44,490 bases of DNA from Candidatus Woesearchaeota archaeon. GTDB lineage: Archaea; Nanobdellota; Nanobdellia; Woesearchaeales; GW2011-AR4. Position 1 is the stretch's first letter. Every line of letters starts with the position of its first letter. Below, one piece after another: positions 34,558 through 44,395 of the stretch. The position numbers and the translations under genes are program-made. The DNA is taken from assembly GCA_016181305.1 (NCBI GenBank), contig JACOZN010000011.1, positions 1-44,490 on the forward strand, given 5' to 3'. The notes beneath the pieces are model-generated. The model saw only the letters and a program-made list of their open reading frames with translations, was not told the origin of the DNA and searched no databases.

Positions 34558-34702
34558 GCCTCTGTGGCTCAATCTGGTAGAGCGGCGCTCTCGTACAACC
34601 TTTTTGCGTTCGCAAAAAGCTTGACCAAAAATTCGTGGGTCTGTTTGCCAGCCCCACTGTTGAGAGAAGCGCAGGTTGAGGGTTCAAATCCCTTCAGAGG
34701 CT
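34558..34702 (+). tRNA. tRNA-Thr(CGT) with 71-nt intron at 37/38 (34596-34666)
   Basis: Acceptor GCCTCTG/CAGAGGC, U73; GCGCT-CT CGT A|intron|A-AGCGC; central helix CTCG/TGAG with 3-nt bulges. Confidence 0.92.
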
Positions 34703-34849
34703 TTTCAATACTTCTATAAGCCGTGTCTTTAACTCCAAATGGGCTATATCAACCGTCTCTAAATCTGCGTATGTAGGGCTTTTCTGTTTGATTTTAGCCA
34801 ATAAACTCTCTTCAGTCTTATCAATCCACAATGCTTTCCTTTTTGTCAT
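34694..34849 (-). CDS. Small regulator/RDF candidate (not in ORF track)
   Basis: MTKRKALWIDKTEESLLAKIKQKSPTYADLETVDIAHLELKTRLIEVLKSL; GAGGTG SD; the stop codon lies inside the tRNA 3' end. Confidence 0.65.
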   Translation of the reverse strand: MTKRKALWIDKTEESLLAKIKQKSPTYADLETVDIAHLELKTRLIEVLKSL

Positions 34850-34866
34850 AAAAACACCTCTTTATG

Positions 34867-34953
34867 ATATAAATTGATAGATATTTATATATTTTTTGGT
34901 TTGTAAAAAACCCGAAAAACAAACATTTAAATATAAGTTCTATCATTTGATAG
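34867..34953. promoter_or_regulatory. Divergent promoters with two operator-like palindromes
   Basis: CTATCA-TT-TGATAG (34940-34953) and an 11/14 match at 34867-34880, each between a TATA-like box and a start codon. Confidence 0.5.
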
Positions 34954-34970
34954 CAAAAAGGTGATTATCT

Positions 34971-35210
34971 GTGAATAATGATAGAATTGCAGTATGGTTT
35001 AACGAAGCCGACAAGCAACGTTATGACGCTTTAGGCATTGGCACAGAGCTAAAAGACAAAGTAAAGGCTCTTTTTTACGATTTTCTTGACAAATCCGAGC
35101 TAGACAAGCTCGAAAAAAAGAATTTCCTTTCGCATGAACAAGTAGAAAAATTAACTGATGAAATTGCTATAAGGCTCACTAAAAGAGCTAATAAATTTCC
35201 CAGTCCTTAA
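34971..35210 (+). CDS. Small RHH-like regulator
   Basis: AAGGTGAT SD, GTG start; strand RIAVWF followed by helices. Confidence 0.6.
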   Translation: MNNDRIAVWFNEADKQRYDALGIGTELKDKVKALFYDFLDKSELDKLEKKNFLSHEQVEKLTDEIAIRLTKRANKFPSP

Positions 35211-35352
35211 ACGGACACTCGACGACGCCAAAAAAACAATCAGGGCAGTTATTGCTCAATCGCTGATAACAGCGACGGCCAAACAAACTGACAGCAAGAA
35301 AACACTTGCTATAAAAAGAAAAAAGAGAGCAGAAAGAATTAAAGGTGTTTGC

Positions 35353-35420
35353 AAGTGAATAAAAACTATTCGTTTTCAGGTGATGGAAGTGAATAAAAAC
35401 TATTCGTTTTCGGGTGATGG
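35353..35420 (+). repeat. 34-bp tandem direct repeat (1 mismatch)
   Basis: AAGTGAATAAAAACTATTCGTTTTC(A/G)GGTGATGG x2. Confidence 0.9.
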
Positions 35421-36330
35421 TTTTCCAAAAATGACAAAAAAAACCATCTATAAGGGGGGTGTGTCTACCCTGACAAATTCAGAGCAAGACGTTTTAATTC
35501 TTCTTACGAATGAATTTTTGACGACTAAACAAATAGCTATACGCCGAAAATGCACAGAAAGAAGAATACAAAAAATAATTCAAAGTTTAAAAGAAAAAGG
35601 TCGCTATTCGCATACTGTTCGCAAAAACCTATCCACTTGCGAACATGCGAACATTTCGTCATCTTTCAATGGTATAAGACTGCACGGCCAAGAACTTCAC
35701 ATAAATATCCTATATAAAGACGATCGCTACAAAAAGCGTTTAGAAACCTGCAATTTGATTAATATTGACGGCAATAGCATAAGGCTGTTCAGAGATGCAA
35801 TAGAAATATATCTAGTTAAAGACTTCTATGCTGATGACGTGCAAAAGGCAACTGCGCAAAGCATGGCTTACATTCAGAGATTATTAACAATAGCCGAGAA
35901 TGACCTAAAACTTATCCTCGTAAAGCCGAGAGCAGAAAATATCAAGCTTGTAAACGCCCATTACGCAGAAATTCACAACGAAATAGCCAAAGACCTCAAT
36001 GTAAAAGCCGAAAAATTAAGGATTTATGCAAATGACGACGGCAAGTTATGGTTTTTGATTGACAATTCTTTTAATCTGCATGAAGCCGAAGCATTGCACC
36101 CGGAAACTTCAAAGCATGACATGGAAAAGGTCAAAGCGCAATTCAATGACATAAGGAATAATCCAAATTTGCCGTTAATTTCTGATGTGTATAGGCTTGT
36201 TGCAGAGCTTTCATTCCATGAAAAAGAGATAGCTGCCGGGCTTAATTCAGTTGTTACATTGCTGAAAAGCCAGCTGCCGGAAAAGCACGAGGAAATCGTC
36301 CCAAAAGAGAGGCCTGACTACTATGGATAA
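35380..36330 (+). CDS. wHTH-containing putative replication initiator
   Basis: N-terminal HTH (LTTKQIAIRRKCTERRIQKIIQSLKEKG); IRLH, HYA, WFLIDNS, HEAE motifs; largest early gene. Start ambiguous (35380, 35389 or 35431). Confidence 0.5.
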   Translation: MMEVNKNYSFSGDGFPKMTKKTIYKGGVSTLTNSEQDVLILLTNEFLTTKQIAIRRKCTERRIQKIIQSLKEKGRYSHTVRKNLSTCEHANISSSFNGIRLHGQELHINILYKDDRYKKRLETCNLINIDGNSIRLFRDAIEIYLVKDFYADDVQKATAQSMAYIQRLLTIAENDLKLILVKPRAENIKLVNAHYAEIHNEIAKDLNVKAEKLRIYANDDGKLWFLIDNSFNLHEAEALHPETSKHDMEKVKAQFNDIRNNPNLPLISDVYRLVAELSFHEKEIAAGLNSVVTLLKSQLPEKHEEIVPKERPDYYG

Positions 36331-42471: not shown

Positions 42472-42473
42472 AA

Positions 42474-43430
42474 ATGGCACTCAAACCAGTCCACATTGCA
42501 GGAATTGCAGCTGCAGGAGCAGGCGCATACTTAATATTCAGGAATAGCGACCAGCTTAAAAAAATTCAGGAAGCATTGGGTGCAAAGGTCGGGGCTGCAG
42601 GCAGCGGCGGAGCCGGCACTATCGTAAGCGGCATAACTGACTTGTCATTTTTGGCTGACATTTTCAAAAACATTCCGCAGCCTCAAATCATAACGCAAGG
42701 CGAGGGCTTATTTTCAAATTTAAAGGATTCTTTTGAAAACGTTGGCAAAGCAATAAGCGGATTAGACGACAAAATTAAGGATGTCATAGACAAAGGCAAG
42801 GATGCAGGCAAAGACATTCTTGACAAAGGAAAGCAGGCGATTGACAAAATAGCAGATGCACCGGGCAAAGCTTTTGATACACTCAATAATAAAATTTCAG
42901 ACGTGAAAAGAGGCATTGACGATAAAATTGAACACGCTGCGGCGGTTACAAAGGTTGGAATAATTGGCGCAGGAATAGGTGCTGGAGTGTCAACAGTTAC
43001 AGGAGCACCATTAGTTGCAACAATAGGCGTAATTCTTGCTGAAATATGGGGTTTCAACAAATTAAGGAGCAAAACAATAAAAGATACAGGCAAGACGCCT
43101 GAAAGCATAGTCGGCGATTTTTTCAAAAATCTTGTAAATTTACGAGGGCCATCAGGATTGCCTGGATTAAAGCCGCCCTTAGGTCCACCTGAGCTTAAAT
43201 TAAATACTCCAAATCTTGTTCAGATAGGGCAAATAAACACCCCTGCCGCTAACTCTCAAGCCCAAAATAGTTCTGGGTTTTCGTCAGGAATATCAAGAGG
43301 AACTACATCAATTACATCATCAGATTTGCAAAGAGCATCAGACCAGTTAAAAAAAGCCACTTCTTCAGGATTTATTACAGTTAGTTCAGGTTTTGCCAAT
43401 CTTGCAAAAAGCAGAGGTATAGCAATATGA
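42474..43430 (+). CDS. Membrane-associated DNA-delivery/tape-measure-like protein candidate
   Basis: N-terminal TM, D/K-rich amphipathic repeats, second Gly-rich hydrophobic segment, Ser-rich tail. Confidence 0.6.
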   Translation: MALKPVHIAGIAAAGAGAYLIFRNSDQLKKIQEALGAKVGAAGSGGAGTIVSGITDLSFLADIFKNIPQPQIITQGEGLFSNLKDSFENVGKAISGLDDKIKDVIDKGKDAGKDILDKGKQAIDKIADAPGKAFDTLNNKISDVKRGIDDKIEHAAAVTKVGIIGAGIGAGVSTVTGAPLVATIGVILAEIWGFNKLRSKTIKDTGKTPESIVGDFFKNLVNLRGPSGLPGLKPPLGPPELKLNTPNLVQIGQINTPAANSQAQNSSGFSSGISRGTTSITSSDLQRASDQLKKATSSGFITVSSGFANLAKSRGIAI

Positions 43431-43585
43431 AAAATCACAAAAACAGCGAGAAAATTGCGATAACTGCAATAATCGGGATAATTGTGCTCGAAAGCCTTGC
43501 TATTTGGAAAGGAATAAACGGCGTGCTTTTTGGCACAGCTTTGACATTTATTGCCGGCATTGCCGGCTACACAATCAAAAAATAG
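43427..43585 (+). CDS. Small two-TM protein, holin-like (not in track)
   Basis: MKNHKNSEKIAITAIIGIIVLESLAIWKGINGVLFGTALTFIAGIAGYTIKK; ATGA-coupled. Confidence 0.7.
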   Translation: MKNHKNSEKIAITAIIGIIVLESLAIWKGINGVLFGTALTFIAGIAGYTIKK

Positions 43586-43600
43586 CTTTTTGAAAACTCC

Positions 43601-43646
43601 AGCCCCGCTTCTCATTCTGGAAAACCACCCCTGAAAAAGCGGGGCT
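43601..43646. terminator. Stem-loop between convergent genes
   Basis: AGCCCCGCTT / AAGCGGGGCT 10-bp stem with an inner TGG-AAAA-CCA hairpin. Confidence 0.6.
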
Positions 43647-43649
43647 TAA

Positions 43650-44312
43650 TTAAATAAAATCAAACAGCCGGCTTTGACCTGCCTGCCTTATGATATCCTG
43701 CGGCGTTAAGGTTTGAAATTTATCAATCCCCAATGTATCAAAATTCTCAAGATAATGGTAAGCCGTTATATGCTTGCTGCTGTGCTTCATTTTCTTGCTC
43801 GTAAATTCCATAGCAACATCCGGGCTTTTCCATTTTTTGTATTGCTTTGCAAATTCCAATGTCTGAAAATCTTTGCGAAGCCCTTTAATCTGCAAGACAT
43901 ATTCGCATGCCGGTGACGATTTGGACAATTTCAGCCTTTTTTCATTCCATTCCTCACTTAAATGCGGCCTAATAAATTTATTGAAATATCGCCTGAATGA
44001 ATTAGCTGAAAATCCAAAAAGCCTGTCACCATAAACCCTGTTTCTTTCCCGGTAAAGCTTTAATTCCTTAATGTATTTCATCCCCAGCTTTTCCTTGCGC
44101 CAGCCCTTTTGATTCTTTCCAAGTGGCCAGTAAAGATAATCCCCGAAAAGCCTGGATACTTTCATATTATCAAGCTCGCATGGCCGGCAGCCAGTCAATA
44201 CAAGCATTTGAAACATAACCCTGACGCCTGAAGCGTAAGGCATTGCTTCTATTGCAGCTATGACTTCCTTGAAAGGAATTGCATAGCTATCTCTCTCATG
44301 GTTAATTTTCAT
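43650..44312 (-). CDS. Tyrosine integrase, catalytic domain only
   Basis: TGCRPCEL (R), GKNQK (K), KGLR, MKHSS (H), TAYHY (Y); GGAGG SD before ATG 44312. Confidence 0.88.
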   Translation of the reverse strand: MKINHERDSYAIPFKEVIAAIEAMPYASGVRVMFQMLVLTGCRPCELDNMKVSRLFGDYLYWPLGKNQKGWRKEKLGMKYIKELKLYRERNRVYGDRLFGFSANSFRRYFNKFIRPHLSEEWNEKRLKLSKSSPACEYVLQIKGLRKDFQTLEFAKQYKKWKSPDVAMEFTSKKMKHSSKHITAYHYLENFDTLGIDKFQTLTPQDIIRQAGQSRLFDFI

Positions 44313-44372
44313 CTTCGCCTCCACCACCCCTTAATTTTTTATAGAAAAAACATCATACGTTTAAAGATTAAA

Positions 44373-44395
44373 GGGGTAAAATCCCATATAAGGCT
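44373..44395 (+). repeat. Candidate degenerate attR
   Basis: GGGGTAAAATCCCATATAAGGCT matches the tRNA-Thr 3' end GGGTTCAAATCCCTTCAGAGGCT (34680-34702) at 17/23 positions ungapped, with AAATCCC identical. Confidence 0.35.

Follow-up and report, generated by a model that had tools for sequence, protein, structure and literature searches.

A 9.7-kb element next to a tRNA-Thr gene of a Woesearchaeota archaeon is probably the integrated genome of a tailless icosahedral virus with one recognisable capsid-protein gene

The window analysed here is the entire contig JACOZN010000011.1 (44,490 nt) of Candidatus Woesearchaeota archaeon (GCA_016181305.1). The host is a DPANN archaeon with a small genome, of the Woesearchaeota type, and archaeal host genes (RLI/ABCE1, deoxyhypusine synthase and topoisomerase VI B) lie on the element's own contig. 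The element occupies positions 34703-44395 (9,693 bp) and carries 22-24 tightly packed ORFs, mostly on the + strand. With refined starts, 22 ORFs were counted and 93% of the 9,693 bp was coding, which bears out the original prediction of a tightly coupled set of ORFs, and the tRNA-Thr gene that this block was said to follow directly was found by Rfam at 34558-34702 (+). The features are as follows, L numbers denoting relatives of the element.

34558..34702, + strand: tRNA-Thr(CGU) gene with an intron of ~71 nt, the integration target (Rfam RF00005, 52.7 bits)
34678..34702: attL, the 3'-terminal 25 nt of the tRNA from the T arm to the discriminator (direct-repeat partner of 44371-44395)
34694..34849, - strand: 51-aa ORF with its last codons and stop inside the tRNA 3' end (ORF list)
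34971..35210, + strand: candidate regulator of 79 aa, encoded divergently from the 51-aa ORF (phrog_31631 only, 0.0025)
35350..35417: tandem pair of 34-nt repeats with 94% identity, located at the 316-aa gene's start (repeat search)
35380..36330, + strand: 316-aa protein, MarR-like winged helix and a C-terminal domain without known family (profile against PDB)
36323..36835, + strand: DNA methyltransferase, 170 aa (phrog_954, 1.8e-66; L005 homologue 64% identical)
36796..37470, + strand: C5-cytosine DNA methyltransferase-like protein, 224 aa (PF00145, 1.3e-10; phrog_757, 4.7e-20; TIGR00675, 1.9e-8)
37461..37745, + strand: 94-aa protein, ribbon-helix-helix-like by eye, kept in L005/L007
37939..38217, + strand: 92-aa protein with a single TM-like segment at its N-terminus (hydropathy scan)
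38328..38567, + strand: basic protein of 79 aa ending in a zinc ribbon (weak zf-ChsH2/DZR; phrog_12167, 4.9e-4)
38569..39087, + strand: conserved protein of ~172 aa, helical and charged by eye (ATG at 38569)
39536..40090, + strand: 184-aa FtsK-HerA-superfamily ATPase, upstream of the capsid gene (motifs and profile against PDB)
40238..40495, + strand: 85-aa Gly-rich hydrophobic protein whose conserved gene directly precedes that of the capsid protein (five relatives, 48-55% identity)
40498..41115, + strand: predicted major capsid protein, 205 aa, single jelly roll of the Halopanivirales type (AF2 model)
41154..41603, + strand: 149-aa predicted jelly roll with an N-terminal helix (AF2 pLDDT 82.9)
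41606..42172, + strand: 188-aa beta-rich protein, only its N-terminal ~50-65 aa common to the L001/L008 proteins
42474..43430, + strand: Gly-rich protein of 318 aa with one or more TM-like segments (hydropathy; weak tape-measure PHROG, 8e-4; homologues in L006 and L008)
43427..43585, + strand: 52-aa protein with two TM-like segments (hydropathy scan)
43650..44327, - strand: 225-aa tyrosine-recombinase-like protein, catalytic domain only (weak PHROGs, motifs and position)
44371..44395: attR, where the tRNA's final 25 nt recur in degenerate form (18/25; repeat comparison)

At the left end, the 51-aa ORF had no Pfam or PHROG match; in the circularised element, the geometry would place it upstream of the recombinase gene and in the same orientation. 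The regulators proposed for this end found no family matches to back them. The tandem 34-nt repeats are possibly iterons or an origin. The 316-aa protein, with homologues in L006 (46%) and L005/L007 (about 30%), matched AdcR in the profile search against PDB (1.1e-7) through its N-terminus only and is, by sequence, a candidate replication initiator or regulator; the MarR-like winged helix is the only recognisable part of what had been called a putative Rep, a function that we infer. Both predicted methyltransferases were confirmed by the phrog_954 and PF00145 matches. The 94-aa protein had no Pfam match, and tblastn aligned its residues 3-65 with L005/L007 at 44-52% identity. Homologues of the ~172-aa protein were found in L001, L005, L006, L007 and L008 (27-35% identity), and we can only guess that it serves as a scaffold or as a membrane-proximal or DNA-associated protein.

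The ORF starting at 40498 had been expected to fold as a jelly roll, and its AF2 model (pLDDT 78.5, pTM 0.72) did so, with the capsid proteins P23-77 VP17/VP16 and those of HHIV-2, SH1 and HCIV-1 as its best Foldseek matches. When the model was compared with 48,161 PDB representatives by VIA-align, HCIV-1 scored Z 11.7 (rmsd 4.1, 141 aligned), followed by VP16 (Z 10.4) and VP17 (Z 9.6), and the next matches stood at about 6.5-6.6; the same gap appeared in a separate VIA-align comparison. The match is that of a predicted model at a sequence identity of about 8-15%, and the 205-aa protein had no sequence match in Pfam, PHROGs or PDB. Jelly rolls are widespread, and the BFVD matches were to C1q/TNF-like and fibre proteins. 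In its model, the 205-aa protein has the capsid jelly-roll fold seen in the Halopanivirales. The 149-aa protein also folded as a jelly roll in AF2, so that the beta-rich capsid-like proteins of the original prediction are represented by these two. Neither the capsid protein nor the ATPase had a tblastn match in 50,697 GenBank phage records, and the capsid family counts 366 cluster representatives in metagenomes.

The model of the 149-aa protein aligned with SH1 6qt9_Y and with a PR772 chain (Z 7.7 for both), STIV A223 (7.0) and HCIV-1 VP9 (6.5), penton-type scores that are level with those of unrelated jelly rolls. In the published description of HCIV-1 VP9, an N-terminal helix leads into a ~150-aa jelly roll, and the architecture of the 149-aa protein agrees with this. 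Judging from the model, it is probably the penton (vertex) protein. The gene is, however, as universal as the capsid gene and always adjoins it downstream of the ATPase gene, which mirrors the ATPase-VP16-VP17 core and, with the predicted jelly-roll fold, would also suit a miniature virus of the classical Halopanivirales type, in which the 149-aa jelly roll is the second (small) major capsid protein, the partner of the 205-aa protein, while another gene supplies the penton. We regard this as unlikely, because hhalign gave a probability of 0.5% between the 149-aa and 205-aa families (no profile-profile similarity), the top 50 structural matches of the 149-aa protein included the SH1/HCIV-1, PR772 and STIV pentons but no VP16, VP17, VP7 or VP4, and its layout of N-terminal helix plus jelly roll is that published for HCIV-1 VP9. 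For the 188-aa protein, the L001/L008 counterparts showed a weak phage tail Collar domain, and L005 and L007 have a 410-413-aa Laminin_G_3 protein at the gene's position; it is a candidate vertex spike or receptor-binding protein.

The 184-aa ATPase has conserved Walker A (GTGGSGKT) and Walker B (...FFDDAD) motifs. Its best profile matches in PDB were DUF87 (4.8e-5) and HerA (1.4e-4), a separate search gave CedD at 2.7e-5, and a weaker PDB match ran approximately end to end with the 210-aa packaging ATPase B204 of STIV (E 0.019, 47-187/66-205). The protein has a single domain, and its size and domains are unlike those of TraB or VirD4. It is a candidate genome-packaging ATPase, and these matches are consistent with the original reading of the element without deciding for it. 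An FtsK-HerA-type ATPase in the morphogenesis module is a trait of the Halopanivirales, which the gene appears to share at the superfamily level. As originally noted, terminase, portal, tail and conjugation families were absent in Pfam and PHROGs, except for two weak PHROG matches, "terminase large subunit" on the ATPase (1.7e-6) and tape-measure on the 318-aa protein. Membrane proteins had likewise been predicted, and the hydropathy scan found TM-like segments; from those in the 92-, 52- and 318-aa proteins we infer an internal membrane.

The convergent integrase gene of the original prediction corresponds to that of the 225-aa protein, which matched phrog_1 (1.7e-4) and phrog_216 (8e-4) weakly. 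Reading by eye shows motifs plausible for the catalytic signature R-K-H/K-R-H/W-Y, among them Box I (LTGCRPCEL) and, at the C-terminus, H...Y. The position, strand and size of the gene are those of the PF00589 integrases in L001 and L008. The protein, a probable integrase, had no match of its own in Pfam, NCBIfam or PDB. Just beyond this gene lies attR; the 18/25 match was reached by 0/5000 shuffles, and attR is the sole such site besides the tRNA itself on both strands of the 44.5 kb. The contig stops 95 nt past attR, and the right host flank is outside it. The anticodon CGT and the intact acceptor stem of the tRNA-Thr were read from the sequence by eye; ARAGORN did not detect this tRNA at 34558-34702 because of its ~71-nt intron.

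In the sister genome G256, a zinc-ribbon gene and the intron-bearing tRNA-Thr are followed directly by host genes. As is characteristic of a tRNA provirus, the far end of the element repeats the tRNA 3' end (in degenerate form here), and the corresponding site in G256 is empty. A search of 400 genomes from the host's phylum found no DNA related to the element, and the capsid gene was present in 0/400 of these other genomes and in 1/401 overall, the one being the source itself. The block is not syntenic core chromosome, as the capsid gene counts and the arrangement in G256 show, in keeping with its original reading as a provirus.

Metagenomic relatives with the trio of ATPase, capsid and jelly-roll genes assemble as circles of about 8.0-9.7 kb (9,737, 9,445, 9,141, 9,053 and 7,990 bp, with terminal overlaps of 28-55 nt); in L008, the ATPase gene spans the contig ends. 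The core genes of the element all align full length with genes of the circular relatives. Integrated versions were seen in two bacterial MAGs, and the family therefore ranges beyond DPANN. One capsid, one 149-aa-type and one ATPase gene each were found in 11/11 elements reaching the ATPase position, and one capsid gene with one adjacent 149-aa-type gene in all 13 of the 13 elements examined, including the two bacterial proviruses.

The seven mismatches in the 25-nt att repeat might point to an insertion that is old or unable to move. This imperfect repeat, together with a recombinase so divergent that it has no Pfam match and no homologue in the 400 phylum genomes, would fit a decayed or domesticated provirus remnant that has lost excision and particle formation. 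Such decay seems quite improbable to us, as the element matches the circular relatives in length and gene set, the core ORFs are all full length at 93% coding density, and the element is missing even from the genome of the same genus and is hence no ancient insertion. The provirus is apparently intact.

An integrative plasmid-like element, with jelly rolls as secreted or surface lectins or adhesins and the ATPase serving DNA transfer, would be in keeping with the frequency of jelly rolls in lectins and fibres (BFVD matches) and with HerA/CedD-type DNA translocases as the best sequence matches of the ATPase, but it is highly improbable in view of the clear Z-score gap favouring capsid proteins, the lack of a signal peptide or TM segment in the jelly-roll model, the retention of the trio in 8-9.7-kb circles with little room for other genes, and the absence of conjugation or secretion families in Pfam and PHROGs.

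We favour, with a probability of about 0.8, the reading that a temperate virus of a DPANN archaeon, predicted from its genes to be tailless and icosahedral, lies integrated at 34703-44395; the intact ~9.7-kb virus of this kind in the original prediction is supported by the att repeats, the capsid fold and the circular relatives, its internal membrane being conjectural. The 225-aa recombinase would integrate and excise the circle at the tRNA, the 316-aa winged-helix protein would start replication or control transcription, and the two methyltransferases would guard the genome against restriction. The 205-aa protein alone would form the hexagonal capsomers and the 149-aa protein the pentons, with the 188-aa spike seated on them. 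The ATPase would pump DNA into this preformed shell, which would be lined by a membrane bearing the small hydrophobic proteins. No match to this family turned up in Pfam, in PHROGs or among GenBank phage records and IMG/VR; this comparison leaves aside the DPANN viruses of Wu et al. 2024.

A PRD1/PM2/STIV-like or Halopanivirales layout had been proposed; the Halopanivirales capsid fold held, whereas the double-jelly-roll group did not, and there is one capsid-type gene. The Halopanivirales (kingdom Helvetiavirae, now realm Singelaviria), tailless viruses of halophilic archaea and Thermus with an internal lipid membrane and vertical single-jelly-roll capsid proteins, are structurally the nearest group, with the Sphaerolipoviridae (SH1, HHIV-2, HCIV-1), Simuloviridae (SNJ1) and Matsushitaviridae (Thermus P23-77, IN93) as members and "Nanicoviridae", "Halicoviridae" and "Huracanviridae" as candidate families. 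The element resembles them in its modelled capsid fold (Z 9.6-11.7 to VP7, VP16 and VP17), a gene for a small FtsK-HerA ATPase directly before the capsid genes, a small, penton-like jelly roll of the VP9 type with an N-terminal helix, small hydrophobic proteins, a probable integrase and temperate lifestyle like those of some members, and hosts in both Archaea and Bacteria. In contrast, it has one capsid-type gene (13/13 elements) instead of adjacent small and large ones, its capsid protein is without the tower domain, its DPANN host is non-halophilic, and sequence similarity to established members was found neither for its capsid protein, in Pfam, PHROGs, PDB or GenBank phage records, nor for its ATPase, in GenBank phage records. 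Genomes of the Halopanivirales are 16-31 kb (PMC12642351, PMC12643093), compared with circles of about 8.0-9.7 kb here. The element thus seems to combine a genome half the Halopanivirales size with one recognisable capsid-protein gene.

The next-best capsid match was to the Portogloboviridae (Sulfolobus polyhedral virus 1, SPV1, 6oj0; Z 6.3-6.6, 16% identity), a Z inside the background of unrelated jelly rolls. The shell architecture proposed for the element is that of SPV1, whose structure paper reportedly describes a shell of one single-jelly-roll protein and a jelly-roll penton. SPV1 has a ~20-kb linear genome and a crenarchaeal host, and it is not known to have a packaging ATPase.

Unlike the double-jelly-roll viruses (Corticoviridae PM2, Autolykiviridae, Turriviridae STIV and PRD1/PR772), the element has a single 205-aa jelly roll as its capsid candidate in AF2, for which membership in the Bamfordvirae (PRD1/PM2/STIV-like) was rejected; the STIV capsid reached a Z of only 5.9-6.1. 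The other large ORFs encode, as read from sequence, the 316-aa protein with its DNA-binding domain and the 318-aa Gly-rich protein with TM-like segments. These viruses nevertheless also have the trio of ATPase, capsid and jelly-roll penton, with STIV B204 giving the ATPase match and PR772 and STIV A223 the penton-like matches, and PM2, at about 10 kb, is of the same genome size class.

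The last 25 nt of the tRNA-Thr gene (34678-34702) reappear at 44371-44395 with 18 of 25 positions matching, and from this repeat of the tRNA 3' end we take the integrated element to span 34703-44395, a length of 9,693 bp. When the 163 nt lying past the recombinase gene were shuffled 5000 times, a match of 18/25 was never reached, and across the whole window, on both strands, it was found only at the tRNA itself and at 44371-44395. The right-hand repeat is not exact, and the contig ends 95 nt past 44395; neither the window nor any other contig of the assembly contains an exact second copy of the tRNA 3' end. 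The element has a G+C of 0.407, compared with 0.420 in the rest of the contig, and a coding fraction of 93%. The observation in the original prediction of a compact provirus directly after the tRNA-Thr gene was confirmed. The main features are as follows.

Features of the element and its integration site
34558-34702: tRNA-Thr (CGU), integration site
34703-44395: element
35380-36330 (+): 316-aa winged-helix protein, originally a putative Rep
39536-40090 (+): 184-aa ATPase
40498-41115 (+): 205-aa protein, predicted capsid protein
41154-41603 (+): 149-aa protein, putative penton
43650-44327 (-): 225-aa recombinase-like protein
44371-44395: degenerate repeat of the tRNA 3' end

At 35350-35417 a 34-nt unit occurs twice in tandem, with 94% identity between the copies, across the start of the gene for the 316-aa winged-helix protein; the pair could be iterons or an origin, or could reflect a small duplication of this start. 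A 51-aa ORF (34694-34849, minus strand) has a tRNA-derived stop that would be lost if the element circularised at the repeats, and it would then extend towards the recombinase gene, which lies on that strand as well (interval 44327-44395); in that case integration would split a possible small-ORF-plus-integrase unit.

The contig that carries the element (C16) is present in full, at 44,490 bp, and is one of 22 in a 1.07-Mb host genome with a completeness of 78% and a contamination of 0.25%. Small sizes, mostly 0.5-2 Mb, were found in all 400 phylum genomes sampled. The left 34.7 kb of the contig carries archaeal housekeeping genes, including RLI/ABCE1, deoxyhypusine synthase, topoisomerase VI subunit B and GlmS. 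The tRNA at 34558-34702 was identified with Rfam (52.7 bits) and was not detected by ARAGORN because of an intron of ~71 nt after position 37; its exons give a normal cloverleaf with the anticodon CGT (Thr). Part of the intron (34595-34640) matches more than 10 dispersed sites at 82-95% identity in G306, a genome of the same genus, and looks like a member of a dispersed repeat family. Between ABCE1 and the tRNA there is a small zinc-ribbon ORF (34367-34543), whose position is kept in four sister genomes, with a downstream tRNA that differs among them. On the host side of the contig, a 438-aa protein (13303-14619, minus strand) gave weak matches to HerA/CedD/FtsK-type ATPases (2.6e-14 to 7.5e-10), making it a second ATPase of the FtsK-HerA superfamily, outside the provirus.

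The distribution of the element in the host phylum suggests mobility. With a profile of the 205-aa protein, the capsid gene was found in the host genome only, 1 of 401 phylum genomes, and was not matched in the same-genus genome (93% complete) or in four genomes of the same family. When the provirus DNA was compared with 400 phylum genomes, only short, weak, AT-rich matches appeared, with no relatives and no convincing spacer-like match. The neighbourhood of ABCE1, the zinc-ribbon gene and the tRNA is kept in sister genomes, and in one of these, G256, a host membrane-protein gene comes immediately after an intron-bearing tRNA-Thr, so that the site is empty there. Genes lying downstream of tRNA-Thr in sister genomes were sought by synteny as the right-hand flank, and had no clear counterpart at the contig ends of the host genome. 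The recombinase protein gave only two marginal matches in the phylum genomes, one of which falls in an eIF2-alpha gene and was rejected as spurious. These tallies take in three unpublished genomes (G360, G322 and G243), which contributed negatives or an ABCE1 match only.

The AlphaFold2 model of the 205-aa protein, built on a 26-sequence alignment, is beta-rich (pLDDT 78.5, pTM 0.72), with a Gly/Ala-rich stretch of ~33 residues at the N-terminus that is disordered in the model. The leading Foldseek matches in the PDB included P23-77 VP17, the VP16-VP17 complex, HHIV-2, VP16, SH1 and HCIV-1 (E from 3.6e-4). VIA-align against 48,161 PDB representatives, run without the Foldseek prefilter, placed HCIV-1 6h9c_D first (Z 11.7, rmsd 4.1, 141 aligned), followed by P23-77 VP16 (Z 10.4, rmsd 2.7, 121 aligned) and VP17 (Z 9.6), and every remaining chain had Z of 6.5 or below. 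The same gap was seen on re-ranking the Foldseek top 1000, with eight Halopanivirales entries at Z 9.6-11.7 and then SPV1 at 6.6. The capsid assignment is one of fold level and uses a predicted model, the sequence identity being 8-15%. The profile of the protein had no match in PDB, Pfam or PHROGs, nor was the protein matched in 72,556 plasmid records; neither a capsid nor an ATPase homologue was found in 50,697 GenBank phage records. Scanning IMG/VR with capsid patterns gave no match, a pattern-limited result that is not proof of absence, and a Foldseek search of BFVD was uninformative, returning only low-TM matches of C1q, collagen and fibre type.

The adjacent 149-aa protein (ATG at 41154) is modelled, at pLDDT 82.9, as a barrel of eight strands with a helix at its N-terminal side and further helices at the C-terminus. 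Its structural matches lie on a plateau, all small jelly rolls with Z of 6.5-8.1; among them are SH1 6qt9_Y and a PR772 chain of ~125 residues (both Z 7.7), the STIV A223 turret protein (Z 7.0) and HCIV-1 6h9c_b (Z 6.5). The penton protein VP9 of HCIV-1 is described in PMC6414509 as built for residues 16-146, with a long helix at the N-terminus and then one beta-barrel; this range fits the 131-residue chain b, and VP9 resembles our 149-aa model. Because of this VP9-like architecture, and because homology to the capsid family is undetectable (hhalign probability 0.5%), we read the 149-aa protein as a putative penton; its Z scores do not set it apart from unrelated jelly rolls. Co-fold prediction of the capsid and 149-aa proteins scored 0.00, which speaks neither for nor against binding.

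The 184-aa ATPase has the conserved motifs GTGGSGKT (Walker A), FFDDAD (Walker B), RHRN and PQN. Its profile matched DUF87/HerA (4.8e-5 and 1.4e-4) and the CedD DNA translocase (2.7e-5), and aligned nearly end to end, but more weakly (E 0.019), with the 210-aa STIV packaging ATPase B204. These matches place it in the FtsK-HerA superfamily, at the size of a viral packaging ATPase, and do not specifically indicate the A32 clade. The assignment of the two DNA methyltransferases is secure, and in the 316-aa protein a MarR-like winged helix is the sole recognisable part. The 225-aa recombinase-like protein, with no family match of its own and no useful PDB sequence match, has weak PHROG support and plausible catalytic motifs, and it sits where two related elements, L001 and L008, have bona fide PF00589 integrases. 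TM-like segments are present in the 92-, 52- and 318-aa proteins; these and family resemblance are the whole basis on which an internal membrane may be inferred.

Close homologues of the 205-aa protein number 26, all metagenomic, and the longest of their contigs cluster at 8.6-9.7 kb. Five contigs have terminal direct overlaps of 28-55 nt, typical of circular assemblies (L001, 9,737 bp; L008, 9,445; L007, 9,141; L005, 9,053; and L032, a more distant relative, 7,990), and in L008 the ATPase gene wraps over the contig ends. The common gene order starts with a conserved ~170-aa protein, the ATPase, a ~50-aa ORF, a ~80-aa hydrophobic protein, the capsid protein and the ~150-aa protein, and continues with a variable spike-like protein of 167-413 aa (carrying Laminin_G_3 or a weak Collar domain in some elements), large Gly-rich or TM proteins, and then an integrase, the 316-aa winged-helix protein or both. 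In each of the 11 elements that reach the ATPase position, HMMs for the core families detected exactly one capsid, one 149-aa-type and one ATPase gene, and they detected a single capsid gene with a single 149-aa-type gene in 13/13 elements examined.

Two of these 13 are integrated elements in bacterial MAGs, one labelled Dehalococcoides and the other "delta proteobacterium". The former (L012, MTNR01000041.1, about 4000-13000) combines the ATPase/capsid/small-jelly-roll module with a 404-aa PF00589 tyrosine integrase, an XRE repressor and a VRR-NUC nuclease; the other (L013, CAVTZP010000007.1, about 5200-13300) has the same module and lies beside bacterial host genes. The virus group therefore spans both prokaryotic domains. 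Two distant relatives, L010 (6,332 bp) and L011 (4,219 bp, GCA_964470335.1), have a capsid protein shortened to 153 aa, in which the Gly-rich N-arm is missing; their G+C is very low (26-27%) and suggests hosts of quite another kind. An exhaustive profile search of public metagenomes recovered 366 representatives of capsid-family clusters (50% identity) at a threshold of E<=1e-3, and 154 when the threshold was E<=1e-10; their lengths all fall within 76-214 aa.

We tentatively propose, with a probability of roughly one in three, that the 8-9.7-kb elements are a widespread undescribed lineage of Archaea and Bacteria whose shell is made of a single Halopanivirales-type jelly-roll protein, in homohexameric capsomers, and a jelly-roll penton. 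If so, they would represent the long-postulated one-gene stage before the Halopanivirales with two capsid genes, and the provirus would be the first virus resembling singelaviruses whose integration links it to a non-halophilic DPANN host. A shell using one jelly-roll capsid protein would also offer a testable model for the origin of two-protein and double-jelly-roll capsids, and such small genomes would be convenient for making virus-like particles and for structural studies. Host links of DPANN viruses come mostly from CRISPR spacers or binning; here the element and archaeal genes are physically connected, as they share a contig. Detections of proviruses in this archaeal phylum are rare; a 2026 survey reports only 30 provirus regions for Thermoplasmatota and Nanobdellota together (PMC13573593). 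Since the capsid family, with at least 366 clusters in public metagenomes, had no match in Pfam, PHROGs, GenBank phage records or the IMG/VR pattern scan, current virus-detection pipelines may miss it.

The original interpretation of the element as a virus is supported by our analysis. The affinity suggested for it stood in part: the capsid fold matches the single-jelly-roll lineage, and the likening to the PRD1/PM2/STIV group was not upheld. Beyond that prediction, a single capsid-type gene is present and the family occurs in Bacteria too. The group may be among the DPANN virus families named by Wu et al. 2024 (Nat Microbiol 9:3362), seven as cited in PMC13573593. Metagenomes have already extended the Halopanivirales lineage, among others to the "Huracanviridae" of ANME-1 (PMC9894754) and to the "Nanicoviridae" of Nanohaloarchaeota; the latter are described as having two capsid proteins, with genomes similar in size to those of haloarchaeal viruses (bioRxiv 10.1101/2025.02.15.638363). 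The genome of our element is about half that of the smallest known Halopanivirales members, the Simuloviridae, given as 16-19 kb in PMC12642351. The element differs from Halopanivirales in having no recognisable second capsid protein and no sequence similarity to established members; it shares with them the jelly-roll capsid fold, an FtsK-HerA ATPase beside the capsid gene, a penton-like jelly roll and a temperate lifestyle.
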